Below are positions 16,600 to 64,000 of a stretch of DNA of 64,000 bases, one piece after another. The notes beneath the pieces were generated by a model that worked only from the letters and a program-made list of their open reading frames with translations, was not told the DNA's origin and did not search any database. Each line of letters starts with the position of its first letter. Position 1 is the stretch's first letter. Origin of the DNA: Psammoneis japonica (lineage: Eukaryota); NCBI GenBank assembly GCA_008632985.1, contig QPGO01000131.1:62001-126000 (forward strand), in the 5' to 3' direction. Position numbers and translations under genes: made by a program.

Positions 16600-18070
16600 T
16601 CACCCACTTGTTTGCCATGATTTTATCAGGTTCTGTGAAAGTGATGATGGTGCCGGCGATGACATGGCATGCCTGCAGCGGCGGGAACAAGGGGAGTCAC
16701 AGAAGTTCCTACAGCGTTTAAACATGGTTCTTACAACTATTGAGACTAAATCTGCCCTCTGGTTGAATGACAAGTTTGCACGGCTGAGGCAGTTCGTGCA
16801 CACCGTGTCTCATCACCCTGAACGGTGTCCACCATTGCGCCCCACGGAAGCGGCGCAATTGCCATCCAACGCCGGGTCGGAGACTTTCGAATTGACCAAA
16901 GACATTGCAAAATGTTTGACAGCTCGAGAACCTTTACCTCCTGCCCCCATTGTTGTAAAAGTTGCCATCAAGGACAAGAGAACCGAGCGATGACACAACA
17001 AGAAAAATTTTACAAAAGTGACACTCCGCGCTGTTGTGCCGAGTTTCAGGAGAGCTGCCACCCTTCTCCACATCATGATTGAAACTAGAGCCACTGATCT
17101 TTGATGCACTTGTCTTGGATTCGGCATCTTCCGTCTCCAAACTCTTTTCATCCGGGGCACGAGTGCAGCCGGCATTCTCCAACACGTTGTGTGCATCTTG
17201 AGACAGCGTCTTGTTCCGAATGAAGTAGTTTGGCGCAATCCTTGGAATGGTGACGAATGAATCACGCTGTTCTTTGTAACACCTGTGACCATTTTCTCGA
17301 AATCCAAACTTACAGCAAGTGTGATGAGCACCGAGGGTGTTGAATCGGTCCCGTTCCGTCGCGGCGGCATCACGCTTCCCACGCACTGCATTCTCCACAT
17401 CACAAAGGGGGAGTGACGGACAGCCACCATGCTTCAGAATCGAGTGCATCGCTGCGTTGTCCATCCAATGCCACTTGAGATTGGGTGGAAGGTGAAGGAG
17501 CACTGTCGACACAGCGCTGCAAACGCCATTGTCATTCGCGCGCATTCTGAGATTTTCATGATTTTTGAGAACTGTGGCATGTTCGTGTAGATTCCAACGC
17601 ATTCCCCTCCACGCGGCGCTGCTGCATTTTTGTATGGAGCATGTCTGGGTTGCAGGTCCATTCGGAACCTTAAGACAAGACATGTGCTTTTCAACCCTCA
17701 GAGAGAGATCGCGCGGGGACTGGCGCGGCGCCTGCGCACGCTGCAGCGCTGCAAAAAACAAAAACAAAAAGCAAAAACGACCGCCGCAATCCGCGGGCGC
17801 TGATGATGATGCTCGACACTACGAATTGTTGAACAATTGCATGATGCATGTGCCCGAAGCTCGAATGTCGTTGCCCAAAGCAACAATCACCGTTCGTGCA
17901 GATGTCCATTCTACATGGCACATGGCATTGAAAACACCATTGGAGTCGCGTGAGTCATCGCGGGAATTTCATGAAATGACCTCTGTGGTGCAGTGCTACG
18001 TGATCTACACAAATCGGACATTCTCAAATGCTGGTGCATGTTCTGTGGTCTCCATGTGCGCGAAGCTCGA
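16600..18070. mobile_element. Partly decayed repeat of unknown family; the neighbouring DNA transposon abuts it
   Basis: TA-poor, with broken Cys/His-rich minus-strand ORFs (16813-17767); no domain recognised. Confidence 0.35.
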
Positions 18071-18294
18071 ATGGAACCATGGGAAAGTCAAAATCGTGGG
18101 GCAGCACTGAAACGCCGTAGAAAATCAAGTAGAAAATGAATGGTCGAAGGAGTCAAAAACCCACCATCCAATGATCGCGATCGCTTTGGGGCCCTGCTTT
18201 GCTGCCAGTCGTCGAGTGACAGCATCCACTCGGAGTGCGACTCTAGCCAGCCAGAGGGCCTGCCATCTAAAAGCCACCAAGCTGTTCCAACACC

Positions 18295-18570
18295 AGCACA
18301 GATCCAAGTGTCATTTTGACATCACACACCATGCGCCTTTGTTGAAATGCATCACACAAAAAGCTGACTCGGAAAGTCCACGCCTCCCAGACTTCGCAAA
18401 AACTAAACCAAGGCGACAGCTGCGACTGCACAACATGTAAAAGCCATGCAACTGGTCTAAAATTAGTGCAGATCTGAGTGTCACTTTGACACAAAACTGT
18501 GAGCCTTCACTGAAATGCATCACACACAAAGTTGACTCGGAAAGTCCATGCCTCCCAGACGTCGCAAACT
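18295..18570. repeat. Diverged tandem duplication (period about 170 bp) of the transposase 3' end
   Basis: tgaaatgcatcacac..gactcggaaagtcca.gcctcccagac at 18343 and 18511; both copies translate as WEAWTFRV.F.CDAFQ. Confidence 0.8.
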
Positions 18571-20183
18571 AAATCAACACTCCATTGCTGGTTTCTCATG
18601 CCGCAACTGAGAAACCAGGACAGTTTGCATCGTTTTACGGCTCGCTCATTGCCTGATCTTGTCACAGCAACACATGCTGAACGAAGTGCATTGACACCTG
18701 AAAGCTTGTCAACTCTGTCTGGTTGGCAACACAGCTGCTCCTCCCACTTTGCTTCCAACAGCAGATGGCATCCTTTGTCAAATGTGTTCAAGAAGTGCTT
18801 CACAATTGTGCCCTCTCCTCCCGCAGGCGTGTCATTCTCAGCAAAACGTTTTTGCAGCTCAAGCATCTTTGTGAATCGAATCTGCTGGTCATCATCACAA
18901 TGGCCTGTGACAAGAGGAAGGCCAAAAATCCAGTTGCAGAGCTGCGCGGCAATTCCAGCTTTGGCGCAGCACATTCCACAATGTACATTGTGCAGTGATT
19001 GATTCACATCCCCAGAGCTCGGGTCTCCCATGTGCATGTTGGACGCATCATGCATCACAGGTCGGTGGCCATCTTTGGGGTTAAAGTGTCGGTCCCACTG
19101 GCGCTTGCGGAACTTCACATCCTCGTCGTATGATGCATGCATTGGCCATCGCTCATGGCACTCCAACTCCTTCTTCAATCGGCATTTTAGCGCCTTTCCC
19201 AACGTCTTGTGATCTGCACCATGCTCCCTCTCCCAGTCCTCCCAACGTGCCATTGTTCGGCCAAATGAAAATTCGCACGTGAAGAGGAGCTCTTCAACAA
19301 AAGTCACACAGGTTGCCGTCTTCATCATTTCATCCAAATTGCCACCGTGCACTGTTGCACCATGCTTGAGAAGATGCTTCAAATTTGAAAATCCCGTGCG
19401 ACGCTTCACTTCCTTGGGAGTGAGTGAGAAGAGCCCGATCTTTGGTTTGTCCCGGCATCGACCTGCAGCTTTCTCACCGGCTGTTGCTTCCTTTTGTGAA
19501 GAAGTTTTTTTGCTCTCATGCAATCCTTCTTGTACAAGCGCATGTTGCGTCTGAACAGACAAGACAGATTCTTGAGCACTTGCATTGACAACATGGCGGA
19601 GCATTTCTCGGTCAGTCCCCAGTCCATCAGAATCAGTTCTTGGAGGCGAGTGAAAGCTCTTCTGAGACCCGATTGGCTTTGGCGCTTCAAATGCTTTGAT
19701 CGGCACATGCTCCTTGTTGCACTTCGTTGACTTTCCTTTCACCATTTCCATTGGGTGCTCGTCACAATGCCTGAGCTCTCCTTTGCCATGCGCTCTTCCC
19801 AGGCCCATGCGATCAGTCCACTCGCGCCGCTTGAACAGTCGGATTTGGTGAGATTTTTGTCGTTGATTGCTCGAGCCGGACGGCAGCTCCTTTGGATGGT
19901 TCGGAGCTTTGTGAAATTTTCCAAAGCAATTCTTGCCATTGTTTGAGCAACCTTTGAAGTGACAGTGTTTGTGCTTTCTCTTTTTCTTTTCAGGACTGGG
20001 TTGCACATTTTTGGTGGAATGCAAACGGTCGGTGGCAGAACTCAAAATGTTTGTCATGTCAGCAAGCAGCCGCCCTTGACGCAAACAAGAACCGGCGCTT
20101 CTGCTGGTGCCTGAACCCGCCAGCAATCGAGGTCGCTTCGATGATGGTTTTATCACAGAAGGCGCTTCTATCCCCGTTTCCAC
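18507..20183 (-). pseudogene. DDE_Tnp_4 (Harbinger/ISL2EU-type) transposase with a THAP-like N-terminal region
   Basis: CHFKGCSN...FHKAP...W...HCDEH; RRTGF; VMHDASN; TGHCDDD; FDKGCH (DKGY-like); RSGNERAVKRCK. Confidence 0.75.
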
Positions 20184-22999
20184 CCTCGCCTTGACGAATG
20201 CTGTAAAATGGCATTCTCAAATCTATCTGCCATGCGATGCACCCACTGGTGCTCGGAATTATAATCCACCGCGGGATCATTTGCTCTTGGAGATCGAGCA
20301 TGCGCAAGCTTCACACCAATTGGAGCATCCACGTTGTTGGCTTTCGCTGACTCTTTTTCTGGATGCAGCTCGTTCATTCTGTCTTTGCCAAATGGCACAG
20401 ACATTGTTTTGGTCGCCAAGACAACGTTGTCGAATTCGGCCGTGGTTGCCGTCCCTTTGGGCATGTTGGGAATGTCAATGCCAAAAAGGGGCTCGGGGTT
20501 AGATTCAGGGTTGCTTTCGTTTTTTATCAAGTTGTCGGCTTTCCTAACAGGACTTTCGCACTTTCTTTGTCGTGCAACAGACCAAGATCTTGCAACATTG
20601 GTTCTCCCGGGGAAAGCTTTTCCCGTCTGTTGTTGCTGAGCAATCATTCAACAGCTCCACAACCGTGGCAGTGGATTGCAAGGTGGGCGGAACCCGACCC
20701 GACGCCTTGATCAATTGAATGACGTTGTCCTTCAACTTTTTCAACAATGGAGCCCCCACCTGACCGCTGATGTTTTCTTCCTTTCTAAGGCGACTGCAAA
20801 GGCCAGCAAGGACAAAAGATGACATTGTTCCACCACTTCGAAACAGCAACTGGCTTCCCTGAGCTGGCCGACCAAAACTGTGCATGCAGGCAACACGATC
20901 CTCTCCCAAATTTGATGCAGACTCGTTCACACACCCAGCCCGGCAGCGACATGATGCAGCAACTAGTTCAGTGGCATTGAATGCCGTGGCTCCCCTGCAT
21001 TTCAGCGATTTCATCGAAGCAAGAATCTCGTTGCTCAAAATCAGACACTCTTTCCCCTCGTGGGCAGCAAGAGTCACGGTTCCAAGTAAAATGTCCGGAG
21101 CACCGGCGTCCGTTGCGTGTCGAATGCCCCTCTTGCACAGTCGCTCACCTGTGTGAACTCTGGCGTTTTCAGCCACAGCCATTGCATTCCGCGGAAGGAC
21201 GTGCTTGTGTGAAAGCTTCTCCCCTGGCTTTTGGATTCCGAGTTTGGTTAGAGACGCCAGAATGTCAACAACAGCTACGACGGAAGCAAGCGGCATGTCT
21301 TCATCTGCAATGAGCTCCGGCAGCTCCTCCACATTAACAGTTTTCGATTGAACAAGATGGGGCTGAGATGCATGAAGGGCGGATGTTGGCAACAGAGGAC
21401 ATGCCACTCCTTTGACTTCTTCCTCAAAATCAAGAAACAAGCCGGACTTGGCATCCTCGTACAGCGACAATGCTTCAAGGTATGATGCATCCACGGGCAC
21501 GGACTGGCCTTTTGTTGCAATGCATTGTCGCATTTCCTGTTCGTCAAGGTTGTCACCTCCACCACCTTCACCAGCACCAAACACGATGCCTCTGAAGCAC
21601 TCAAGGCACACTTACATTCCTCTCCACCTGGCAGCTCCTCCTTTTCATCGACAAAGCAAAATGCACACAGTGCACTGTTGCACATGGCACATGTCTGTAC
21701 AGACTCCACCCCCAAAAAAGTGTGACTCCCACATCCTGACCCTTTACATGTTGCAATTTCGGGACCCTCGACGACCCTTGTCTCTGACGCGGCAAAGTCA
21801 GAAAGGCAAGACTCGAGCACCGCTGGCGCCCCGCACATGCAGCCGTTGTCATCGTCACTCGTTTTTTCGTGCAACAATCCCTTTGCTAGACATGACACTG
21901 CATCGCTGGAGTTGACAGCTCCTCCATTCACACCCGCAATGTCTTCCGCAAGAGCTTTGTGCAGCTCTTTCCCAGTCTTCTGTGAGTGCCTTGCAAGCAA
22001 ATCAACTGCAGCTTTTGGACCACATCCATCGACTCCTTGTGGACAAGCATCACAACCCAACAGGAGAGCTGCAAGGGCCCTTGTCATCGGATCATCAACC
22101 CCACTGAATGTTGGGTGGCCTGGAGTTTGGCCATCGCGTTTGGTGTCTTTGTCTTTTTCAAATGGCGAATGCCCCAATTTCACACTCAGAGTCTCCTCGA
22201 CAATCTCAGCAATCTTTTGCTGACCAGTGCAAAGCCGACATGCTGTAATGGGATCCTTCATTTTCGAAATAGAGATGTCTTTGATCATAACATCAAGTCC
22301 ATTTGGACCGACGTACATCGAGAAATCTGAGTCACCCGACGCAATTGCATCGGCATCCGAGTCGACAACCAATTTTGCAACACACGGGTCCGCCTGCATC
22401 GGTGCAGTGACAATGGAGACCACGCCTTTCCCCTGTGGATCATATTCTTCCACCACACTTGTAAGATTTGTGTGAAAATCCGGCGTCAACCCGCGATCCA
22501 GCATGCTTTCTAGGCTGCGGATCTTCTTCTGGGCCTTGCCCACTTGCTCCGCATGGTCTGCCGGACTTTCAACGCTTTCAGCTCCAAGGAGACTCTGCAA
22601 ATTAGATTGAGCAATAAAGAGCCGAGTCTTGGCCTTTTCAGCTTCAGCACGGCGTCTACAAGAGGCATGCTTGGAGGCATGACGGTTCGTCGGATGGTCG
22701 CAGACAATGTGAACGTCGCACAGTTTTTCAGACAGAGCCTTGGCTGTGTGAAAGACAGCATGCTCTGGGAGGAATGATGAGCAGTTGCCAGCATACTTAT
22801 ATGCTAATAGATTCGCATCAAGCACTATCTTCAATCGTTGTCTCGGGGGAGAGGAGTCGATCTCAACGCTCTCTGCCGCTGCTCGAGTTTGTCGTTCCAA
22901 ATGATCCCTTTTTGCCACTTCTTGGATGACCAGCAGCATCAAATCAAGAGGAAGCTTTACAGTCTTCCAAAGAATAAGATGAGCACCCTTTAGACCCAT
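20168..22999 (-). pseudogene. Transposon-borne XPG/FEN1/EXO1-like PIN nuclease plus Cys-rich finger and SWIM-like finger, frameshifted
   Basis: KIVLDANLLAY, VHIVCD, APMQADP, IASGDSDF, H3TH-like LLGCDACPQGVDGCGPKAA; CAMC..LCAFC..CLEC; CRCRAGC...ACMH. Confidence 0.7.
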
Positions 23000-41551: not shown

Positions 41552-43383
41552 TCAAAAGTCTTCCAAACCATATGGATCAAAATCGTCCAGGTCCTCGTCT
41601 TCCAAAACGGCGGCAAAGGGTATTGCCGACGGACTAATAGCATCATCTTCGTCAGCATACAGCAAATCGTACAAGTCTCGTCGCTCTTCGCGTAATCGTG
41701 AGATACTACCATCGGGTTCCGTCTTTTTGGCGCCCTTGGTTTTCTTCTTTTTCTTTGCCGCAGTCTTTTTCGGCTTTGCTTTGCGTGCCGTAGTTGTCTT
41801 TTTGATCGCAGGCTTTGCCACCTTTTTCTTTTTGACCGCTACGACTTTCTTTACCTTTTTTACTGCTCGCGGTTGCACCGCTCGAACCTCGTCCGTCTTT
41901 TTCCGTCTCGTGCGACGTGGAGATGGCAAAATTCCCATCTCTTCTCGCTTCTTGGCCATGGCATTAACAATTTTATTCCGGTATTCTTGATCTTGCCACT
42001 TTTTCTTCATGGCTTCACTGATACGCTGTCGGTGTGTTTTACCGTATCCTTTTTCTGGGCTCTTTCGTGTGTGGATTTTGGCCATCATTTTTTCACGAAA
42101 TTCAGGATCTTGCCATTTCGCCTTGAGCGTTTCCGAGATGCGTTTGCGGACATCCTCAGCCGAATTGCTAACGTTTGACTTTTCTACCATGTTGTCACGG
42201 TAAGACTTGTCGTTGGCCCATCTCTTTTTCAGAGACGCACTGATTTTAGCTCTTGTTTCCGCGCTGTGTGTAAATCCGCGCCTCACCTTGGAGGGATCAA
42301 CTGGCGTTCGTTTAATTTCACCCTTCGCATACTTGTCCTTGAGCACTTTCGATATCTTTTCTTTCGTCTCTTTTGTTGGTCGAAGGCCTCCCTTTTCGGT
42401 TCTTCTAGCCCGTCGCTCAGCATCCTTTTTCCTTCGTTCTGCCCGTTTCTGTTCCTTGTACTCCTCCTCGGTAATACCCTGTTCCTCTAGTTTCTTGAGA
42501 AAGTTTTGCCGGTTCCTGGCTCGCACACCCGCTGCAATTCGCGCTCTTGTCTCCTCAGAACGTGCCTTGCCCTTGTTCCATGGGATTTTCCCCTTGTTTG
42601 CGGCTGATATTTTTGCCTTGGACGACTTGGTGTGGGTGTATCCGCCGTTTGCGGTAGGATGAGGCACGTCATCGTCCGTGGGTTGCTCTGTTTCCCATAT
42701 CGGAATGTTAGACTCGTCTATTACTGAAGCGCCATTAACAGTAACAGAATTTTCCTTTCCATTTGATGCTGGAACGTTAGTCAACAGAGTGGCATTACTT
42801 ATACCGGAAGAGGAGTTCTGCGGAGCAGGGTCACTGCTTTTTCCATTCACTGTAGCTTCCGCTGTTGCATTCTGCGCCGGAGCAACTACATTTTCGACTG
42901 TAACTTCAGCTTTGTCAACTTGGGTAGAAGGGCCTGGCGATTCAGCTATATCCACTTCTGTGCTCCACAATCTAACCAAGCCCAGTGAAGGCGAAGAACA
43001 CTGTCCTAGCTCAGTCGATTGAAATAGTGGCCGATGAAACGGAACTCTACGAGGACACGGAGGAGCGTTAAAGCACGGACCTCCACGGCGCTCTCGTCGG
43101 TGCATACCCCTTGACCATGGTATCCATCGTCCTTGAAAGGCATCAACGACCATCCTAGGGCGAGTCTGACTTCCACCGGGCAGCAATACAGGATTGAAGC
43201 CAGAGTTGCAACAAGCGGTAGTTTTCGTCTACGTCGCTTAGAAGTTGACCTCTGAGGTCTCATCTCTGAATTCATCGTTTCTATCGCCTCTTTTCTTTTC
43301 ACTGTGTTCTCTAGCTCTGCTATTGACCGTTCTATGGTGTCCTTGGTTGCCGAAAGCCTCTTGTTTAGCATTTCATCCATCAT
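41552..43383 (-). CDS. Basic protein with NUMOD3-like repeats, full-length copy; one-base frameshift near 43187
   Basis: HTKSSKAKISAANKGKIPWNKG, SEETRARI, ETKEKIS, HSAETRAKISASLKKRW; acidic tail. The paralog has caataaca where this copy has caataca. Confidence 0.8.
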
Positions 43384-44062
43384 CCAAGCTGTCTTCGGGA
43401 TTTGAGTGATGGAAGTAGTGATTATGTAGATGCGATTTGATTGGTTGTTGACGTTGTGTCGGGGCCACTGACGGTTGCCGTAAAGGCAGTATGTTCTCTA
43501 CGTAGAAAGCGAAAGCATCCGGATGACGGAGAGGGTAAGAATTACACCGGCAAGCTCATTAGGCCCCCAGGGCCCTGGAGCTAAGGAGCAACATCCTAGG
43601 AGACATCGTGATAAAGAAGACGACAAAACGACTGGTGTCATTGATCGCATGGTTGCAGCATGAGCCACCACGATGGCTTGGGTTTCCGGCACTTTCGACA
43701 TGTGAAGGAAAGTTTCCCCTTCTACTCCTGCAACAGCTCTTTTTCGAACGAATCATGAGTCCAATGATTGCTGCATTGTCAACTTTTCACAGCCACAGAA
43801 GTTCCTCATGTCTCTTGTCATTTTGACTTGGTGTCTTCCCAGGCTCTGCATCCCTCAGGACTTGCTTTTCTTTCTGTGTTTGCGCTTTTTCATTTTTGTG
43901 CTTTTTCCTTTTTCGTTCATCGCTGGAGCCATCATTGCTGCTTGCCCCATTCACTGGATGCTGTAAATTGTTGTCACTCTCACAGTGTTGTCTTGTGCTG
44001 GATTTTGTTTTGTCAGTGTGTCCGCCCATGGCACCTCTTGCCTTGCTTGCTTCCACGGCTCT
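42008..44062 (+). repeat. Direct segmental duplication, copy A (about 2.05 kb)
   Basis: Collinear with 46290-48369 from catggcttcactgat to ccacggctc. Confidence 0.95.
43855..44062 (-). pseudogene. Truncated, mutated 3' fragment of the FRA10AC1-like gene
   Basis: KARGAMGGHTDKTKSS.RQHCESD...ERKRKKHK matches the end of the 48161-48964 ORF. Confidence 0.85.
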
Positions 44063-46070
44063 GGCAGAGGCAGCGACCTGCACGAGTGGGTTTCAAATCT
44101 GGCTGAGTCATGAGGTTGCTGCTCTCTGCACTGTCTTGTGCCACAGCATTGGAGAATCTGTGTGGGTCAATGTTGACAATCGGGCAACAAAGGCGTTTGC
44201 ACTGCACAACTGCCAGTGCCAACTCTGAAAATGTCACCAGCACTGTCTCCAGATGGTTGTGACTGATCTTTGTGCACCTTGTGGGTGCAAAGCTCTTCAG
44301 CTTTGTGATTGGCTGGCCACTGGCCAACTGCCAATGGGAGGAAACCAAGCAGATGTGCACCATTCATTCTCAAAAATGCAGCATTCCATCCACAAACTTT
44401 TGATGTGCATCAGAGCTGGGATGCATGAGGAACATAGAATGAAGGAGAGTTGATGCACAGACCACCTCCACTGCACTTGCCTGGATTGTCTGAAGTTGCC
44501 ATTGCTGCCGTGTTGCAAGTGGGGCAAAATGTTTTTTTGGCACAAATTTTTGAGCTAAATTGGCCAAATTTGAGTTGCAAAAAGCAGCGATTGGCACCCT
44601 TGAGTGAAGGCTGCGGCAGTAGAGGGAAGTTCTGCCTTGCGCATTGTGGCTGCATGTTGAGTCTTGTGAGTCATCATGACAACACTCTTTTGTCTGGATG
44701 GCAACCACCACCATGGCCCAATTGGGCGAAGAGGTGGATTTTGTGAAAACAATGGCACCTGCATGATTTCTGTTGTGTCCCCACCCACAGCGGCCAGCAA
44801 CATGACTCTGGTGCCAGACATGTGGACAGGTGAGTGGATGGATGAACAGACCCTGACTTTTTGAAGTCCACCCGCTCATCAGTTGTAAAAAGATTTTGCA
44901 AAGATTTGATCTTGAATGAACTTGATCTTGATCTTGAACCTGCAACAACAAACAACAATGTCAAATGTCACTGCTCAAAATGGTGCTGTCGAGTTGTTGC
45001 TCTCAGCACCGCAGCTGTGCATTCAATTGCAAGCACAGACATTTCTGAACTCAGAGATGACTGGACCACCTGCACGTGTGCATCTTCCACCTGTGTGGAA
45101 GAAGTGCTGCAAGCACAAAGGTTGGGAGCACAATGAAAAGGATCTCATTTTGCTTGGAAAGGAACAACATGGGCAAGTCGATGCTGCAAAGTGCTTGATC
45201 GACATGTTTGTTGGAATCACAACTGAAAAGGGTGGCATCAAGAAGCTCAAGCGAAGCAAGGCTGACCCTTGCATGTTGCATCATCATGATGACAAGGGGC
45301 AGTTGGAGACTGTCATTTTGATGTGCATGGACAATGGGGTTTCACATGCAAAAAGCCGGAAGTCATCAAGGAAGCCAAGGACCATTGTTTGGCAAAGAGA
45401 GTTAAGATGATGGACATTGGATGAATCAACGGCTCATTTAGGAGTTGATTGTGAATTGAACAAAGACAAACATGGTTGGCACTTTGAGTGCAGCATGCGC
45501 AAGTGCTTGGAGAAGATGATTGCAGAGTGCAAACAACCCTTCAACAAGAAGGTTGAGAACTGTGAGACACCTGCAGAGGGCAAGGGAATGTGCTGATGAA
45601 GGCAGACAAAGATCACAAGCCAGCCAAGCAAAGTGGATGTGAAGCCTTTGTTGGAAAGAGGTTGTGTGCATGTTGAAGGTCTCACCTGATTGTGCAAATG
45701 CAGACAGAGCCCCGACAATGCATTTGACGAATCCAGCTGATGAGCGCTGGTGCACGTGCTGGACAGATTCGTGGGACATCTGAAATTTCACTGTCAGGAG
45801 CCATTGAAGTTGAGGTTGCCTTTGGAGTCAAGGAGCTCAGGAACATTTGACACTGAGTGAAGAATGGACAAGAATGACCAAAAGAGCATTTCAAGTGACC
45901 TCTCCACACTGGGCGGCATGTCCTCAATCAGCTGGCAATCGAAGAAGCAGACCTTGGTGGTGGCGCTGAGCAGTTGTGAAAGTGAGACCATGGCAGGTGC
46001 GGCGGGGTGCGCACAGAGCATTCAGTTTCAGAGTCACTTGTTGGAGGACATCGTCAACGCGTGTTGATTT
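44063..46070 (+). mobile_element. Ty1/Copia LTR-retrotransposon pol relic (RT and RNase H)
   Basis: LLGKEQHGQVDAAK (LYG motif), SKADPCML, LMCMDN (YVDD), KSISS...LGG..ISWQSKKQTLVVALSSCESE. Confidence 0.85.
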
Positions 46071-46235: not shown

Positions 46236-47654
46236 CTACTGACGAGTGTTAGTAGTGTATGTATGTAGATCGGCATCTGGGTCGTCCAACATGGCTTCAC
46301 TGATGCGCTGTCGGTGTGTTTTACCATGTCCTTTTTCTGGGCTCTTTCGTGTGTGGATTTTGGCCATCATTTTTTCACGAAATTCAGGATCTTGCCATTT
46401 CGCCTTGAGCGTTTCCGAGATGCGTTTGCGGACATCCTCAGCCAATTTTCTACCGTTTGACTTTTCCACCATGTTGTCGCGGTAAGACTTGTCGTTGGCC
46501 CATCTCTTTTTCATAGACGCACTGATTTTGGCTTTTGTTTCCGCGCTGTGTGTAGATCCGCGCCTCCACTTTGAGGGATCAACTGGCGTTCGTTTAATGT
46601 CACCCTTCGCCCACTTGTCCTTGAGCACTTTCGATATCTTTTCTTTCGTCTCTTTTGTGTGTCGATAGCCTCCCTTTTCGGTTCTTCTAGCCCGTCGCTC
46701 AGCTTCCTTTTTCCTTCGTTCCGCCCGTTTCTGTTCCTCGTACTCCTCCTCTGTAATACCCAGTTCCTCTAGTTTCTTGAGAAAGTTTTGCCGGTTCCTG
46801 GCTCGCACACCCGCTGCAATTCGCGCTCTTGTCTCCTCAGAACGTGCCTTTCCCTTGTTCCACGGGATTTTCCCCTTGTGTGCAGCTGATATTTTTGCCT
46901 TGGCCGCCTTGGTGTGGGAGTATCCACCGTTTGCGGTAGGACGAGGCATATCATCGTTCGTGGGTTGCTCTGTTTCCCGTGTCGGAATGTTAGACTCGTC
47001 TATTACTGAAGCACCATTAACAGTAACAGAATTTTCCTTTCCATTTGATGCTGGAACCGTAGTCAACAGAGTGGCATTACTTATACCGGAAGAGGAGTTC
47101 TGCGGAGCAGGGTCACTGCTTTTTCCATTCACTGTAGCTTCCGCTGTCGCATTCTGCGCCGGAGCAACTACATTTTCGACTGTAACTTCAGCTTTGTCAA
47201 CTTGGGTAGAAGGGCCTGGCGATTCAGCTATATCCACTTCTGTGCTCCACAATCTAACCAAGCCCAGTGAAGGCGAAGAACACTGTCCTAGCTCAGTCGA
47301 TTGAAATAGTGGCCGATGAAACGGAACTCTACGAGGACACGGAGGAGCGTTAAAGCACGGACCTCCACGGCGCTCTCGTCGGTGCATACCCCTTGACCAT
47401 GGTATCCATCGTCCTTGAAAGGCATCAACAACAACCCTAGGGCGAGTCTGACTTCCACCGGGCAGCAATAACAGGATTGAAGCCAGAGTTGCAGCGAGCG
47501 GTATTTTTCGTCTGCGTCGCTTAGAAGTTGACCTCTGAGGTCTCATCTCTGAATCCATCGTTTCTCTCGCCGCTTTTCTTTTCACTGTTATCCCTAGCTT
47601 TGCTATTTTCCGTTCTGTGGTGTTCTTGGTTGCCGAAAGCCTCTTGTTTAGCAT
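46236..47654 (-). CDS. 3'-truncated paralog of the NUMOD3-like protein, with an open frame and a new short tail
   Basis: 472-aa ORF similar to copy A up to RISEAM, then LDDPDADLHTYTTNTRQ from junction DNA. Confidence 0.65.
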   Translation of the reverse strand: MLNKRLSATKNTTERKIAKLGITVKRKAARETMDSEMRPQRSTSKRRRRKIPLAATLASILLLLPGGSQTRPRVVVDAFQGRWIPWSRGMHRRERRGGPCFNAPPCPRRVPFHRPLFQSTELGQCSSPSLGLVRLWSTEVDIAESPGPSTQVDKAEVTVENVVAPAQNATAEATVNGKSSDPAPQNSSSGISNATLLTTVPASNGKENSVTVNGASVIDESNIPTRETEQPTNDDMPRPTANGGYSHTKAAKAKISAAHKGKIPWNKGKARSEETRARIAAGVRARNRQNFLKKLEELGITEEEYEEQKRAERRKKEAERRARRTEKGGYRHTKETKEKISKVLKDKWAKGDIKRTPVDPSKWRRGSTHSAETKAKISASMKKRWANDKSYRDNMVEKSNGRKLAEDVRKRISETLKAKWQDPEFREKMMAKIHTRKSPEKGHGKTHRQRISEAMLDDPDADLHTYTTNTRQ

Positions 47655-48369
47655 TGAAACCCAGCATCCAACCTGCCTTCAGGATGAGAGTGATGGAGGT
47701 GATTAGTCTAGGTGCGATTTGATTGGTTGTTGACGTCGTGTCGGGGCCACTGACGATTGCCGTAAAAGGCAGTATGTTCTCTACGTAGAATGCGAAAGCA
47801 TCCGATGACGGACAGGGAATTCAAAAAGATCTCGGTGAAGATTTAGTAGCCCTACCGTAGATAGACTCCTCTTCCTCCTCTACTAGTAGCTAGAGCTAAG
47901 TAGCAACATCCTAGGAGACAACATGATAAAGGAGACGACAAAACGACAAGTAGGTATCGTCGAACGCACAGTTACAACACAAGACACCACGATGGCTTGG
48001 GTTTCCGGCACTTTCGACGACAAAAGTTTCTCCTCCTGATCCCAGTTCTTTTTCGAACGAATCATAAGTCCAAGAACTACAGTGTTCCCTTTCCATAGCC
48101 ATAGAAGTTGACCACACTTCTTGCCAAGACGACTTGGTGCCTTCCCAGGCTCTGCGTCTCTCAGGAACTCCTTTTCTTTCTACGTTTGCGCTTTTTTCGT
48201 TTCTTGTGCTTCTTCCTTTTTCGTTCAACGCTAGAGTCATCATTACTGCTTGTCCCATTCAATGACTGCTGTGAATCGTCGTCGCTCTCGTGGTGTTGTC
48301 TTTTGTTGGATTTTGTTTCGTTTGTGTGTCCCTCCATGGCGTTTCTTGCCTTGCGTGCTCCCACGGCTC
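46290..48369 (+). repeat. Direct segmental duplication, copy B
   Basis: Collinear with 42008-44062. Confidence 0.95.
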
Positions 48370-55826: not shown

Positions 55827-56614
55827 TCTGCAGGCAACAAGATTCTAGGTTTGTATCTTCTAGTAAAGCAACTATTCCACGAAATCCGGCTGGTCCCCAA
55901 TCCTAATCCCAACTTGATCTGGTCTCCAATAGGTCAACTGCCAGCAATGGAAGTGAGTCGGCCTCTCCTTTTAGCGAAAGATGGCTACAACTGACGTTAA
56001 TCTTGCCGTGCTTGTTGTGGCCGCCTGGTGCTCACATGCACATTTTGAAGTCGAAAGTGATATGAGTCTTGTTCTGTAATGCGAGTGATGACCAACTCCA
56101 TTCCGCATCCGACCAAAGCCTATATCAGTATCGTCACAATCCGTTATATTTGTATCCGTTCCTTTTATTTCTCTAGCTAAATTTGGCGGGCAATCTCTCC
56201 GATACCGATAGTGGTAACCGTTGAACCGGGATTAGCATAAATAAAAAAACTGCTGAAATTTTTGCTGGCACGACTATTCCACCGTTTCCCGCCAAAACGC
56301 AACTCCCACTTCCAAAAATTTCATTCTCGAGCTCCTCTACCGTCCAGTAGTACGAGCGCGAAAGCTGCGAGAGGTCGGTATTCTTACCAACCTGGCCTCC
56401 GAAAACTCGCAACCTTCCCATTCCGTACAACTTGTTCTTAGTTTCGTTAAACTGGCTAAAGGACTCCGAATAGTACTGAGAAGCCAAAAAACTGAATAAT
56501 ACGGGATCCCGGATAAGTAGCGATTTATTGTTAAATTGACTAGAACTAGCTTACGGTGCGCAGAAAACTACTTTATCTTGTATGAAATGGGCGAGGAAGA
56601 ACCAAAAAGCAGAC

Positions 56615-58418
56615 TTACTTGTTGTAGTTCTGAATTTGAGAAAAAATGAAATGTGAGTGTATGGAAAGACCTAGACAAATGAAATTCTACTGACAGCGGC
56701 TTTCGTACCTTGAGGAAGTCCAAAGCTTCTGCACTGACTTCTTCTTTTTGGAGAACCTTTCCTCCCGCTTCTCCTCCCTTGACAACACCAAGACCAGAAC
56801 CACTAGCCTTAACAGCTGGAGCAGCTGGTTTCGGGGCCGGCGCAGGTGCGGGCTTGGGAGCAGGTTGCGGTGCTGGAACAGGTGCGGGTGCAGGTGCTTC
56901 GGGCTTAGCAGCAGCCTTCTCCTCCATGGCAGCCTTTTTCTCGGCAGCCGCAGCAGCTGCCTCCTTCTCCTTGGCCTTCTGTTCTGCGGCCTTTTCAGCA
57001 GCAGCCTTCTCTTTTGCAAGCTTTTCGGCCTTGATTGCTTCATCCTTAGCTTTCTGTTCGGCATCTTCCGCGGCCCGCTTGTCGGCGAGGGCCTTGGCAG
57101 CAGCCTCCTTATCTTCAGCAACCTTGGCGGCCTGTTCCTCTGCTTTCTTGGCTTTGGCCTCGCTTGCTGCTTTGGCCTTGGCCTCCTGTTCCGCTGCTTT
57201 CTTGGCTTTGGCCTCGCTTGCTGCTTTGGCCTTGGCCTCCTGTTCCGCTGCTTTCTTAGCTTTAGCATCTTTGGCGGCCTGGTCTTTCGCAGCCTTTTCG
57301 GCTTCTTTCTTGGCTTTAGCAGCGGCGGCCTTTTCAGCTTTGGCGGCCTTCTCCTTCTCAGCATCGACGGGTGCAGGTTTTGGTGCGGACTTCTTCGCAG
57401 CCTGCCCGGAACCATCAAAATCATATCCATCTTGGGACTTCAGCTTCTTCGTAGCTTTCTTAACAGGCGCAGCCTTGGTAACCGCGGCCTTTGGTGCACC
57501 AGACTTCCCGATTTCGACCTTTGGCGCAGAAATCGTCGGCGGGGAGATATCAGCAAGCGGCGCAGCAAAAATAAGTCCCAAAGAAGCCGCTCCGGCACCA
57601 AAAAATCCCTACCAAACATAACAGCAACAGAAGAAGTGAGTTTCGCTACGCCAAATCAAGCCAGAGACGAATAAAGAAAGTGCGACTGAACGTACCAACG
57701 CCTTTCCGAGGGTGCCACCATCCACCTGAGAATCGATCTGTTGCTTCTGCTTGCGTGCTTCTTCCTCGGCAATTTCTTTCTCAATCTGTGCGCGACGCTC
57801 CAACGTACCGGTCAAGATACTCCTGGTTCCAGCGAGAAGAGCGACCGGAGCAAGGAGAAGAGGAGCAGCGCCGAGCGCAACACCAACGGGTCCAGCGTTA
57901 GGATCAGCGGAAGTCGATTTGGGCGCCGGAGGAGGCTTGGGCATGACCGCCTTCTTTTCTTTCTTAATCTCCTTACGGACTGCGACTGGCTTCGCGGGCG
58001 CGGCAGCCACCTTCTTTTCGAGAGTTTTGGTCTCAAGCTGCACATATTCACTCTTCTTGGGGGAAGAACGTTTCGCCTTGGGTGCAGGAGCTGGCTTTTC
58101 AACGACAGGTGCTGGTGGTGGTGGAACCGGCTTCTGCTTCGCAGCAGGTTTGGGCTTTGGGGCGGGTTTGGGCTTCGGAGCAGGTTTCGGCCTTGGAGCT
58201 GGCCGAGACTTTTGAGGCGCAGGAGGGGGGGAGCTCAATAGCTTGTTCTCCAGATCCGACAAGTCCATGCTCATGCCACCCTTCGCAGCACGTGCCGGGG
58301 TAGATCGGGTGAAGGTAGGGATAGCATTCCTGGATACAAAACTGCTGTGACTAGACGACGGCACAAAAGCGTCGGTGGTAGCCACCGTCGCAAAGAGGGC
58401 AAGAGCGCTGAACTTCAT
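56615..58418 (-). CDS. Probable plastid-targeted Ala/Lys/Pro-rich membrane protein; introns 57609-57695 and 56630-56708
   Basis: Signal peptide then AFVP; PKPA and KAAE repeats; two hydrophobic segments; GT-AG splicing joins the frames and ends FLKNYNK*. Confidence 0.8.
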
Positions 58419-58789
58419 TGTCGACTATATAAACCAACAAGTTTCAGAGCTAAAACCTGCAACCGTCAGCACTGTCCAGCACAAAAGCGTTGACGATGTT
58501 GGATGGTCACGTTCGTTTGGTTGTTTGGTTGCCGCTTGCAACACCAGCCACTGACATACGCGTTTGTTGAGGTTTCTCGCCCGGCGAACACCGTATCTTT
58601 TTGATTTCCTTGATTCAAACTGTGACGTAAGCGACCTCCACGACGCGCTCGCGAGATGGAGGAGCGCGCGATCCGAAGGCACTCACGAGTGGTCACTCTT
58701 TCTCTGTCTCTCTCATGTGAGCACATCTGCCAAGTTGCTGATGCTGAGGAAAAGAACAACAACACTGTCGAAATCATGTTGATCACCCA

Positions 58790-60975
58790 GTCACCCATTG
58801 CAAGGCTGATCTTGTGGTGTTGTGTTGCCCGTGTCACCTTTTGTTCCCAACAGCAATGACCGACTTTAACCTCCAAAGTTCACACTGAAAGGGTGCCATG
58901 ACGCCCCCCACCAAGCTGACATCTACAAGCTGGGGACACTGGTGGCATCTGGTGGACCCAGGGTGAGACTTCAAGAATTCAAGAGCTGTTGTTGGGTGCT
59001 GCAAGGTTGATCCTGTGGTTTTGTGCCCCAGGTCACATTGTCCTCCCCAACAGCAGCCAACATGACCAAAGGTCAAGGATCTCATCATTGCACCAACCAC
59101 CTGACAACTGCCAGCAGAGGGCATTGGTTTTTTTTTGTGAACCCTGGGTGAGATTTAAGAGCTGTTGTTTTGGGCATTGCAAGGTTGATCCTGCTGTGGT
59201 GCCATGGTCGTGTGTCATGTTGTGCCCAAGAGGGAGCAGACTTGAAATTCCAAAAATTCTCAAGTGAAAGAACCCTGCACAATGGCACCAACCAACCTCA
59301 CAACTGCAAGCTGAGGGCATTGGTGGTCTGTGGTGGACCCCAGGTGACAGTTTGAGAGCTGCGGCTGAGCACTGCACAGTTGATCTTGTGGTGTTGTGAC
59401 ACCATGTCAGGTTGTCCCAACAGCAGTGGGACTTGAACCTTGAACTTCCAAACTCCAGAGTGCAGGGATCCCTTGGTGGCACTCAACCAACCCAACAACT
59501 GCCAATGGAGGGTGCTGGTGATGTCTGGCAAACTCCGGGTGAGACTTTGAGAAACTGTGGTGAGGAGGGGGCACCGCAAGGTTGATGTTGCGGCATTGTG
59601 GCCCCACACATGTCACCTTGTGTGCCCAACAGCAGCAGACTTGGCTTTCCCAACTCCAAAGTGCAAGGATCCCATCATGGCATCAACCAACCTGACAACT
59701 GCCAGAAGAAGAGGGCACCGGTGGTCTTTGGGAAATCCTGGGGTGAAACTTCTTTGAGAGCTGTTGTTGGGCATTGCAAGGTTGAGCGCTGCAGCCATGT
59801 GTCACATTGTGCCCAACAGGAGCAGAGCTGAACTTCCAAATTCCAAAGAGTGAAAAGATCCCATGACAGCACCAACCAACCTCACAACTGCAAGCTGGGG
59901 ATGTTGGGGGTTTGTGGCAGACCCCAGGGACAGTTTGAGAATTGTGCCGGAGTGCTGCAAGGTCAATCCCATGGCATCGTGGGGTGCCACATGACCTTGT
60001 CCCCAACAGCAGCGGACGACTTGCCAAACTTGTTCCAAACTCCCAGAAAAGTGCAGGGGTCCCATGGCAGCACCAACCAACCCAACAACTGCTGGCAAAG
60101 AGCATTGGTGGTGTCTGGCGGCAAACCCCAGGTGGTGCTTGAAGATTTGCAGCTGGGCATTGCAAGTTGCAAGGTCGTTGTGGTGTTGTGGCCCCATGTC
60201 ACCTTGTGCCCAACCACAGCACAGCAACTTGAACTCCAAAAGTCCACATTTGGAGGATCCCATCACAGCACCAACCAACCTGGCAACTGCAAATTGAGGG
60301 AACTGCTGGCAGTGTCTGGCACACACCAGGCGCGACTTAAAGAATTGTGGCTGGGCATTGCAAGGTTGATGTTGTGGCACTGTGGCCCCATGTCACCCCC
60401 TCTTGTGCCCAAGAACCACAGCAGACTTGAACTTTCAAACTTCACATTTGGAGGATCCCATTGTGTGGTGCCAACCAACCTGACAACTGCAAGTTGAGGG
60501 CACTGGCAGTGTCTGGTGTGCACCAGGGTGTGACTTCAAGAATTGTGGCCGAGAGCATTGCCAGGTTGGTGTTGTGGCATTGTGGCCCCATGTCAGCTTG
60601 TGCCCAATGGCAGTGGACTTGACTTTCCCAACTCCAAAGTGCAAAGATCCCATCATGGTGCCAACCAACCTGTGACAGCTGACAGCAGAGGTCATTGTCA
60701 GTCTTTGATGGACCCCATGTGAGACTTGGTACATGATGAGCTGTTGTTGGGCACTGCAAGGTTAATCTTGTGGTGCTGTGGCTCCATGTTGCCTTGTCCC
60801 TGACAGGAGCAGACTTGAGCTTCTTGCTCCAAACTCCAGAGTGTGAAAGAACCCCACAGTGACACCAGTCAACCCACCAATTGCCAGCAGAGGGCACTGG
60901 CAGTGTCTGGTGGACACCAAGGGCAAGGCTTGAAGAGCTGTTGTTGTTGGGCATTGCAAGGTTGATCTTGTGACA
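58790..60975. repeat. Degenerate tandem array, about 12 units of about 180-200 bp
   Basis: ttgggcattgcaaggttgat..gtgg / ccaaccaacc.gacaactgc recurs near 58800, 59000, 59180, 59375, 59577, 59777, 59957, 60160, 60360, 60560, 60757, 60957. Confidence 0.85.
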
Positions 60976-61604
60976 AGGATTGAACAATCCTGTTTTTCAA
61001 TCCAGCGGCATTGGACAAAACCAAGGTTGAGTGAGTCTTGTGTGACCTTGGTCCTTGACTCTTTCTGCACCCATCTGAGCAGAGCTGGAGCCAACATGTT
61101 TTGCTGTGACTGCTGACCAAAACCTTGTGGGGGAGAGCAGGGCACGCACCACACACCCGGCCTTTCTGACAATGACAGCAAGGGAGGATCTGGCTGTGGA
61201 AAATGACTCAGATTTCAGACATGGAAGCCAAGGATTGGATTTCTACAATCAAGAGACTGCATTGGGAAGTGAGGGCAGTGACAAAGAAAGACAGAGAAAT
61301 TCTAAGTGGCGCAGTTGACTCAACCAAACAACAACATGGCACACATCAAACATCAAACTCACGTCAGAGCCAAAAGCTGGCAAGGAGCACAAAGATCTGC
61401 CAAGGCGCTGGTCAAACAAATGGGGTGGAAGAAGGTTTGTGCTCATGCACTGTGCTGGTGCTGGGTGTGATTCAGGATGCAAGCTCCATGGCGCACCCCC
61501 AACTGTCACAAAGTCCTTGATGGCAATGTGAGGTGCCTTGCGAACAAATGGTTTGTTGCCAAGTTGTGCAAGGCTGTCATCAAGAAATGTGATGAAGAGC
61601 ATGG

Positions 61605-61812
61605 CAAGAACTTTGTCGTCAACCATTTGGATGAATCAACAAGCTTCAGAGCCAAACCTGCAACCACCAGCACTGTCCAGCATGACACTGGTGTTGATGA
61701 TGTTGGATGGTCACATTTGTTTGGTTGTTTGGCTGCCGCTTGAGGTTCTCACCCAGCAAACACTGCACCCTTTTGATTTCTTTGACTCAAACTGTGATGC
61801 AAGCAACCTCCC
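61605..61812 (+). repeat. Mutated duplicate of 58410-58640 (start and upstream region of the Ala/Lys/Pro-rich gene)
   Basis: Shared aaacctgcaacc..cagcactgtccagca, gatgttggatggtcac, tttggttgtttgg, ttttgatttc.ttga.tcaaactgtga. Confidence 0.85.
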
Positions 61813-63199
61813 CAAAGGCAGTCACAAGGGATCCATGTGGTGGTTCATCCCTCTCCACAGAAGTCTTTCCAACTCTTTGCCAGTCAAAAAAACTTGAGAC
61901 AGATGAATTCAGGCAACAAGTTGAGGACATTTTGGCTGAAAATTCCTTCCCTTGACCCTGCAATGTGGAGAGAGAATGCAAGAGTGCATGACACAACATC
62001 ACATCACTCTCATTGCTCGCGGGCATGCGGTGCATCCACAGCCAATGCTGCTGCTGGTGGTGTGGTGGCAAGCAAAAGAAAAGTTGTGCTGTCAAAGCCA
62101 AGTTGGCCACCCTGTCACCACACATCCAAGTCACCAAGTCATGGTGTGCAGGACCCTCTTGGGGGTGGTGCATGATGGGGGGCAAAACATCACAAGAAAA
62201 ATGTCATCTTGTGCCAGGGGCATGCCAGCAGCTGGCACACATCAGGGCACCTTCCCGCACAATGGCCACTGTCTTGTCTTAAATGGTGACAAATGCTCTC
62301 ACCAGTTGGCCCCTCCTGACATGGGCCAATGCTTCAAGTGATGAGAAACACCATGCTTTAAACACCATGAGTTCCTTGCTGCAACTCCTTGCTGCGCAGC
62401 TTGAGAAAGTGACCTTTTTCTTTTTCTCACAGACAAGTGTTGCCTCATTTCAGAGAAACATTCAGCACCAACATGTGTGGGTTGAGAGAAGAGAGTGTTG
62501 CAAGCCCATCCTCAATTCTCTTGCAATGCTCCTCACACCTCCAGCACTGTGATGAATCACCTCTCTTTCATCTGTGCCCAGAGAGGCAATGCTGAGAAAA
62601 AGAAAAGTCTTGGCATTGAGCACACAGTGCACCCCCCAAACAGCAAAGTTGCCACTGGCATGTCTGCATGCACCCTGCCCAATCTTGAGAGATGAGCCAC
62701 ATGAACAACAAGTGGGTGCAAAGAGTGGGACCTCAACAAAAAAGCACAAATGTGAGAGGTGCGCAAGAGTTTGTTGGGTCCAGCTGCCAACTTTGGGTGC
62801 AAAACCAAAGCTGCCTCTGCCCCCTGCACACAAACTTCCAGCTCTTGACCAAGAGTTGGCAGAATGTGTCAGCCCACCTGTTGTGCGATGGACAGACTGT
62901 GTGCGGATGATGACCGGACCATTTGGACAGACGAGCAGATCTCTCTGAGATCTGCCTCTCACTTTCTCATCTGCTGGCACTCGTGTTGTCACAGTCCCAG
63001 TGCTCAGGGAGTCTTTCACACCTCTGTCATCATTGACCTTCGGCATTCTGTCAGGTTGTGGCCTTACGCTGTGCCACAGAACTCTGCGCCAAGCTTTCCA
63101 TCTCGATTCATTTGTTTTGTGAGCTGACCGAGCAAGCCTCATCTTCTGTTCCAACAACAATTTTTTTCTCGCTTTCCCGGCATTTTTCACGATCGCAGA

Positions 63200-64000
63200 A
63201 ACATGCCAGATTTCTTCATGTGCATGACCAAAAATGCCCTCATCAAGTGAAACCATGGCGTCTCCCGACCTTGCAAAGGCCGCTCCGACGTCCATTGCAG
63301 AGATCCACCATGAGTTTCAAGAACACACAATGACACCTCATTTCCATGCGACCTTGAACAAGATGCGCGCCGATTCAACATTTGATCTGGACCCGTTCTT
63401 TGATGATCCAGAACATGCTCAACCGAAGAAAGATTTTGTTGATGTGTTTCGAGATCACCTCGTCCACACGGCGTTCCCACCTTGCACGGTCCATCCTGTG
63501 GACATGCAGGCTGTCAAGATGATTGTGGATGAAGCTGCGCTCCGCATTGTTGACTCTGCCAGGCCTCGTGCGATCCGCATGACGCCCGCATCTCTCTCGT
63601 TGATCATCAAGACCAATCTCTGGGGAGCCACGATCAAATCATGTGCGTTGTCATCTCCACACACCACATTGATGATGACCCCGACATGACATGGAACTGT
63701 CAGGATTGGAAGGAGTTCTCCCTCATGCCCCACCCGCAGAACCCACAGCCTGCACCATCATCTACGACTGCTTCAGGACCTGCGACAGTTGGTGTGAATG
63801 ACTCAATCACCACCCTCAACAAGTTTGCGTCAAGCCACGCTCCGCCTTCCACTGCCTCTGGCAAGACCTCTGGAACTCCCGCAACTTCCACAGCATCCAA
63901 ATGTCTCTTCAATCCCAACACCCTGCCTCCCGATGTTTGCACACGCTGCGACCGCAAAGAAAGTGGTGCCGTCACCCTGAAGAGCTCTCTGGTCCCTTGT
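63200..64000 (+). mobile_element. Start of a younger TA-depleted, CG-retaining coding relic, running off the window
   Basis: Protein-like, Tyr-free ORF 63234-63689; many CG, very few TA. Confidence 0.4.

Follow-up and report, generated by a model that had tools for sequence, protein, structure and literature searches.

Fungi, through RIP, and animals, through APOBEC and ADAR enzymes, are known to hypermutate selfish DNA in a targeted way. The closest described system is that of the alga Bigelowiella natans, in which, as a preprint describes it, integrated and silent DNA of NCLDVs and virophages undergoes A:T-to-G:C changes at TpA alone, at about 1000 times the background rate (Mettrop et al., bioRxiv 2026, 10.64898/2026.01.13.699255). 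The same account presents the target region as shown to be single-copy, proposes an ADAT-like deaminase, and describes a long-term footprint in which TpA is depleted while CpA and TpG are enriched (10.64898/2026.01.13.699255). Diatoms, for their part, are described as carrying CpG methylation on their transposons, in a DNMT5a-dependent manner in Phaeodactylum, and as having DNMT4 relatives of RID whose function is not known (PMC9998398). Searches of article full texts found no report of TpA hypermutation in diatoms.

Here we analyze a window of 64,000 nucleotides from the diatom Psammoneis japonica (contig QPGO01000131.1 of assembly GCA_008632985.1, positions 62,001-126,000 of the forward strand), in which a gene fragment and its duplicate have come to differ, at their aligned bases, almost only by transitions. 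Coordinates below are positions in this window. We consider it fairly likely that the duplicate was converted by virtue of its position within a bounded silent domain, by two transition processes, and not because it is a duplicate.

Two copies of one gene fragment

A first-pass annotation of this DNA had proposed that the sequence at 58410-58640 is duplicated inside a nearby repeat block and converted there. The duplication is genuine: in a blastn self-comparison of the window, 58429-58639 aligns with 61631-61811 (214 columns, 71% identity, E 7e-28), and all six of the conversions quoted in that annotation can be found in the alignment of the pair. Local alignment pairs 58393-58640 with 61595-61812, and when the bases are reduced to purine or pyrimidine the pair reaches a score of 106, the highest null value being 88. 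We take 58410-58639 as the confident core of the original and 61608-61811 as that of the copy, both on the minus strand; each may extend to the limits of the local alignment. Leftward beyond this core, into the coding sequence, the homology is not significant (observed 18, against a null of 16.9 +/- 2.7, with 126 of 300 shuffles reaching 18). The copy lies 3.2 kb from the original, in the same orientation. Further gene-fragment duplicates embedded in repeats, which the first-pass annotation had envisaged, did not emerge; a purine/pyrimidine self-comparison of the whole window yielded only the pairs already known.

The original comprises the first codons, 5'UTR and promoter of a gene and has a normal content of TA and CG, while the copy, a converted duplicate of the gene's 5' region, sits inside a block depleted of both and is spanned by a single X1 read contig. 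That the original, next to the active gene, retains its TA and CG was correctly noted before: there are 7 TA and 16 CG in the 248 bases of 58393-58640, compared with 0 TA and 2 CG in the 218 bases of the copy. CA and TG together occupy about half of the copy (25 CA and 26 TG in 218 bases), and its start codon is ruined, plus-strand CAT in the host sequence standing opposite TGT. The original and both of its flanks are spanned by a read contig, 57228-58826, that differs from the window at 1 position.

The host gene (56568-58418, minus strand) has two introns and encodes a conserved diatom protein. Its open reading frame starts at 58418, the coding sequence of exon 1 occupies 57695..58418, and the intron that follows lies at 57608-57694. 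The exon 1 product consists of an N-terminal signal-like peptide, MKFSALALFATVATTDAF, and a Pro/Lys-rich region. Along the protein, the hydrophobic core is followed by a motif that contains F; then come a Pro/Lys-rich spacer, the hydrophobic segment GVALGAAPLL, which is invariant, and, after the first intron, a Lys/Ala/Glu-rich tail. One source calls a homologue 'HemX'. The N-terminus with its F motif resembles the plastid-targeting signals of diatoms. Nearly all of the 59 homologues are environmental, the one that is named coming from the diatom Attheya, and the closest are about 55% identical. Conservation extends to the N-terminus, where M1 and F3 do not vary among 14 aligned sequences.

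Expression of this gene is evident from X2, a sequencing run of the source sample that behaves like a transcriptome. Contigs from X2 skip 57608-57694 and 56630-56708, leaving CT..AC ends (GT..AG on the gene strand), and one of them, with a spliced joint from 57607 to 57695, spans exon 2 and exon 1 and reaches 58515. The original thus belongs to an expressed gene and takes in its promoter, no fewer than 97 bases of its 5'UTR, and its first codons. Contig cover from X2 is absent over 44001-46001 and 58675-64000, a blank that carries no weight as evidence of silence.

The main alignment of the two copies contains 207 aligned bases, 176 of them matches and 31 mismatches, together with 50 gap columns in 7 indels. 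All but one of the mismatches are transitions (30 to 1), a ratio that varies with the method, the counts being 28 transitions and 3-4 transversions under uniform scoring, and 36 and 5 with MAFFT. Where the host has CG, the copy has CA or TG in 12 of 13 aligned cases, and where the host has TA, the copy has CA (4) or TG (1) in all five. Seventeen differences therefore run from TA or CG in the host to CA or TG in the copy, and 1 runs in the opposite direction (58419 T, 61617 C). With an asymmetry of 17 to 1, the symmetric changes in both copies that the first-pass annotation had named as a sign against its reading are absent.

This concentration on two dinucleotides is far from what chance would give. 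TA and CG account for 36 of the 207 aligned bases and take 17 of the 31 changes (p = 2.7e-6); counted per target, 17 of 18 TA/CG dinucleotides changed, compared with 14 of 171 other bases (Fisher p = 7e-15). The CG changes are balanced by strand (5 C>T, 7 G>A) and the TA changes are skewed (4 T>C, 1 A>G). There remain 13 differences outside TA and CG, namely 6 T>C singles, 2 C>T singles, 2 CA-to-TG doublets, one of which is the start codon, and 1 A>C. Twelve of these 13 are transitions, and a process strictly limited to TpA and CpG cannot account for them.

On the plus strand between 58442 and 58614, the single changes outside TA and CG include 6 T>C and 0 A>G, on the same strand as four of the five TA changes. 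The skew hints at strand-coordinated events or at a looser context specificity. We considered whether off-target T>C change might be a feature of the whole block and rejected the idea, as it leaves no trace in the dinucleotide composition.

The depleted block and its edge

Between 58629 and the end of the window there are 12 TA in 5372 bases. The last TA before this lies at 58628 and the last clustered CG at 58686; CG depletion extends from about 58700 to 62885, to the right of which CG is back to near-normal density. Composition therefore changes over a few tens of bases: the first satellite monomer, at about 58690-58700, marks the start of the depleted domain, and the original, which is untouched, ends 50 bases away. 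The last unconverted DNA, delimited from the positions of CG and TA, is a CpG-dense boundary zone of 46 bases with 10 CG (58641..58686). Placed exactly between promoter and satellite, it may be a boundary element or one of the core promoter.

The block itself has three parts. The first is a satellite array (58700..60975) of about 11 monomers of about 200 bp, recognized by self-comparison, which are free of TA and CG and about 67% identical; its left edge was placed at the composition boundary, and in purine/pyrimidine space, where monomer identity is about 81%, the satellite also starts at 58700. Summed read depth over the array is 600-1437. Read contigs over the satellite are joined in many different ways, a sign that further arrays, or variants of other lengths, may exist at other sites of the genome.

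The second part is a converted stretch at single-copy depth, 60955..62881, which contains the duplicate. It is reproduced by one X1 contig of 1927 bases at a depth of 58.4, within the range of 54.7-61.6 found in unique neighbours, and summed depth is 58-71 over 61343-62676, although depth here is derived from contigs and is a weak measure of copy number, to which old copies diverged below 85% add nothing. No domain was recognized in this stretch, and none of the 30 open reading frames between 60900 and 64000 matched Pfam at E <= 0.001. The window differs from the contig at 61541, 61617 and 62395 alone, with C in the window and T in the reads; all three positions are at CpG, and each read base removes another CG. 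Position 61617 is also the single reverse site of the pair, being T in the reads and in the host copy (58419) and C in the window, so a TG-to-CG change inside the block is possible there.

The third part, defined by depth and composition, is a high-copy element (62677..64000) that is free of TA, has near-normal CG, and runs off the end of the window. Summed depth reaches 6102 over 62677-63343, about 100 times the unique level of about 58, and is 777 over 63344-64000. The element has a weak match to Transpos_assoc (E 0.0017, below Pfam's cut-off), and a homologue search with the open reading frame at 63228-63686 found none. It could be young, present in many copies and so far affected by conversion at TA alone, or it could represent a family in which the active copies have become TA-free and hence immune to a TpA mutator.

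Comparison of these compartments shows that TA loss and CG loss are separable processes. In 58800-62880 the observed/expected ratio (o/e) is 0.04 for TA and 0.13 for CG, with CA/TG at 1.84, compared with a TA o/e of 0.60 in normal DNA. In 62881-64000 TA is just as scarce (o/e 0.03) and CG stands at 0.70, and in 17000-22500, elsewhere in the window, the values are 0.16 and 0.78. Stretches that are TA-free and CG-normal lie at 62886-64000 and 19189-20963, and other dinucleotides are near normal throughout the depleted blocks. Every CG-poor domain of at least 300 bases is nested within a TA-poor domain, so TA loss is broader or faster than CG loss. The earlier description of a single 'TA/CG conversion' does not survive this comparison, given the TA-only blocks and the nesting of CG-poor within TA-poor DNA. 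We suggest that the CG loss is probably due to CpG methylation followed by deamination.

Direction of the changes and what directs them

The history that we favor would run as follows. A fragment of about 230 bases from the 5' end of a conserved and expressed gene, with its first codons, 5'UTR and promoter, would have been duplicated 3.2 kb away and would have landed in a silent domain composed of the satellite array, DNA at single-copy depth, and the high-copy element. There a first process would have changed TpA to CpA or TpG (A:T to G:C) nearly to saturation, probably through enzymatic deamination of adenine, as proposed for B. natans. A second would have changed CpG to TpG or CpA, again nearly to saturation and probably through deamination of 5-methylcytosine, since diatoms methylate CpG in transposon DNA. 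Both processes would stay within the domain, whose edge falls at the first satellite monomer, no more than a few tens of bases from 58690-58700. With the processes so confined and the edge 50 bases from the original, the copy would have been changed by its location and not by being a duplicate, with chromatin as the likely targeting signal.

A second, linked duplicate in normal DNA bears directly on this distinction. The segments 42008-43503 and 46290-47786 (about 1.5 kb, about 95% identity) differ by 78 mismatches in about 1500 columns, 41 transitions and 37 transversions, and neither has been converted (TA 57 and 51, CG 87 and 88). Duplication is thus not sufficient for conversion, and the single-copy depth of the 1.9 kb surrounding our copy indicates that it may not be necessary either. 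In full, the linked duplicate is about 2 kb long (42008-44061 and 46290-48369), and its right copy is covered by contigs of the spliced run. The last 500 or so bases of the left copy, beside a block at 44100-46000, have lost TA and CG.

The same ordinary duplicate provides a yardstick for the rate of change. In the converted copy 17 of 18 targets changed while only 1-4 transversions arose in 207 bases, and if the spectrum of the ordinary duplicate is used for scale, the per-base excess is roughly hundredfold, a figure that rests on very small counts and, given the saturation of the targets, sets a minimum.

The alternative that fares best, which we nevertheless regard as unlikely, is that mutation was triggered by repeats and overran its target, as in RIP. 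On this account copy number is the primary signal: repeats are sensed, and the single-copy stretch is hit as a bystander. The depleted domain does start exactly where the satellite starts, at 58700, and the converted stretch does lie between repeats with summed depths of 600-1437 and 6102; moreover, RIP is described as overrunning into embedded single-copy genes (PMC3105345). Set against this are the unconverted linked duplicate, 1.5 kb long and about 95% identical, and the report of the same signature on a single-copy insert in B. natans (10.64898/2026.01.13.699255). An overrun would also have to reach 1.9 kb or more on the right-hand side of the satellite, yet less than 50 bases on the left, into the active promoter. 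Such an asymmetric spread favors a bounded domain, an overrun that halts at an active promoter being the less likely reading. Selection on the promoter may also have helped to keep the original intact.

The first-pass annotation had attributed the targeting to location or chromatin, 'unlike RIP'. The former view is upheld insofar as only the embedded copy differs (17 to 1) and the linked duplicate is unconverted, and it is weakened in that the pair by itself cannot polarize the changes. The contrast with RIP is sound for the original and the 1.5-kb duplicate, both unmutated, and overstated in view of the overrun into embedded single-copy genes that has been described for RIP (PMC3105345).

The pair is no guide to its own polarity, since TA or CG arises from every transition within CA or TG, and a reversed history would leave the same alignment. 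Two degenerate-pattern scans of metagenome contigs for an outgroup gave 0 matches, the stretch being found only in the source sample's own sequencing runs, and the protein homologues, at about 55% identity, are too distant for an alignment of the promoter. Taken together, however, six indirect arguments make it very probable that the TA and CG of the host are ancestral and that the copy was converted. The opposite history, in which TA and CG were absent from the ancestor and were regained beside the gene by ordinary transitions, seems to us improbable. Its appeal is that CA and TG make up about half of the copy, so that ordinary transitions would strike them about as often as is observed (17 of 31), and that allelic differences in normal DNA are transition-rich as well. 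It has to contend with the following.

The homologous segment takes in the start codon, and the N-terminus that the gene encodes is conserved; this points to the gene locus as the source, although the coding overlap behind the argument is only 9-25 bases. The composition of the copy is foreign to normal DNA: among 38,805 sliding windows of 217 bases, none has 0 TA and at most 2 CG. A reversed history would have created CG 12 times and TA 5 times (p = 0.002 at an expectation of 2:1, p = 0.07 at 1:1), which contradicts the usual GC-to-AT mutation bias. In addition, the entire 5-kb block is depleted, including the satellite, whose monomers have both CA and TG in 29 of 78 columns, where control dinucleotide pairs range from 4 of 48 to 15 of 57. 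A CG persists in seven of the mixed columns and a TA in 1, as expected if an ancestral CG or TA had been resolved differently among monomers.

The excess of transitions is a less decisive guide. At 30:1, or 28:4 in the worst case, the pair departs strongly from the 41:37 of the ordinary duplicate (p = 3.6e-6 and 4.8e-4), but not significantly from the 10 transitions and 2 transversions among the 12 differences listed between window and reads in normal DNA (p = 0.18 and 0.66). We therefore discarded transition bias as a proof of polarity and keep it as moderate support. A weak argument comes from an exonuclease-like open reading frame in a TA-poor block, which has His in two of the five columns where Tyr is conserved in five homologues.

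This reading frame (21278-22999, minus strand, in the TA-poor block at 17000-22500) matches XPG_I at E 9e-5, just below Pfam's cut-off, which was the only match among 37 open reading frames of the other depleted blocks compared with Pfam. Its five environmental homologues are 41-52% identical, and one is labelled a 5'-3' exonuclease. It may represent an insert of foreign origin or of viral type, comparable to that of B. natans.

A history in which an RNA or single-strand intermediate was edited on one strand by an ADAR-like or ADAT-like deaminase, before integration, appears very improbable. The strand skew speaks for it: on the plus strand, TA sites and other singles combined give 10 T>C and 1 A>G, and on the minus strand the base inferred to precede the edited A is T in 4 cases, A in 4, G in 2 and C in 0, a pattern that resembles the neighbour preference of ADAR. 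Such editing would leave unexplained the absence of TA from the whole 5-kb block, including the satellite and the flanks outside the copied fragment, and the lack of strand bias in the CG changes (5 C>T, 7 G>A). The fragment also extends upstream of the transcript contig end at 58515, although the true start of transcription may differ from this position.

Finally, misreading of modified TA and CG bases in silent DNA, in the assembly or in base-calling, is hardly credible. Methylated motifs do lead long-read base-callers into A>G and C>T errors, and the window does differ from the reads at three CpGs of the block. But the read contigs, which come from the same sample as the assembly and are not independent of it, reproduce the TA/CG-free sequence at a word depth of about 58 with 3 differences in 1927 bases, values that speak for accurate reads, and the indels, satellite divergence and Tyr-to-His changes fit real mutation.

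Implications and comparison with known systems

The pair amounts to a small natural experiment, in which the same 230 bases at two sites 3 kb apart met opposite fates, the unconverted copy being only 50 bases from the edge of the domain. It makes testable what directs the mutator, whether chromatin state, repeats or transcription, and whether the CpG methylation mark is shared. The diatom case would be a second instance of a TpA process so far reported once, in one alga, in a 2026 preprint. More tentatively, and as a conjecture that may well fail, diatoms might carry a defence mutator that deaminates adenine at TpA independently of copy number, has its limits set by a chromatin edge that comes to about 50 bases or less from an active promoter, differs from methylation-driven CpG decay and exceeds it in speed or breadth, and is the same system as in B. 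natans. Were this true, TpA editing of silent DNA would be an old defence common to the SAR supergroup. There is also a practical consequence. Conversion hides homology, since the TA and CG targets are lost and Tyr codons turn into His or Cys, and repeat and pseudogene annotation in such genomes therefore needs a comparison that is blind to transitions.

Among the known systems, the ADAR and ADAT deaminases share with the diatom pair an A-to-G outcome and a preference for a 5' T or U neighbour. The substrate of the known ADARs is, however, double-stranded RNA and not DNA resident in chromosomes. The decay of methylated CpG resembles the second half of the pattern: CG gives way to TG or CA on both strands, at 12 of 13 host CG, and only in repeat-rich silent DNA. 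It covers the CG half alone, whereas TA loss in the diatom reaches beyond CG-poor DNA and is everywhere at least as advanced.

RIP, in Neurospora and other ascomycetes, is similar in that hypermutation confined to transitions ruins repeats and leaves dinucleotide skews in discrete blocks. Its chemistry points the other way, because CpA is changed to TpA and TA rises, whereas the diatom block erases TA (o/e 0.04, against 0.60 in normal DNA). RIP mutates both duplicates; in the diatom the original and the separate 1.5-kb duplicate are untouched. A duplicate of 230 bases also falls below the length threshold for recognition by RIP. Furthermore, RIP is tied to the fungal (premeiotic) sexual cycle and to RID. 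A last point of resemblance is that embedded single-copy sequence is also hit by RIP, as described for Leptosphaeria maculans (PMC3105345).

The comparison with B. natans is the closest (10.64898/2026.01.13.699255). The changes described there are at TpA only, whereas the diatom pair adds 12 changes at CpG and 13 outside both contexts to its 5 at TpA; a second process best accounts for those at CpG. The TA loss of the diatom is accompanied, separably, by CpG loss, and the term 'CpG' has 0 occurrences in the available preprint text. The host there is a rhizarian and here a diatom, a stramenopile, and the target there is a viral insert, where here it is satellite, transposon-like DNA and an embedded fragment of a host gene, with no viral insert recognized. 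Depletion is also far more advanced here, nearly total at a TA o/e of 0.03-0.04, compared with 0.45 in the viral insert. In both organisms the rate would be far above background, the roughly 1000-fold figure for B. natans coming from mutation-accumulation lines and the diatom excess being a crude value from one sequence pair. Confinement to a discrete silent region, independent of copy number, may be a parallel: the diatom block has a sharp edge at about 58690-58700, and its converted copy is at single-copy depth, flanked by repeats. What the two have in common is the TpA signature itself: in the diatom pair all five host TA would, with the polarity that we infer, have become CpA or TpG, and the block has the same footprint of scarce TpA and abundant CpA and TpG.
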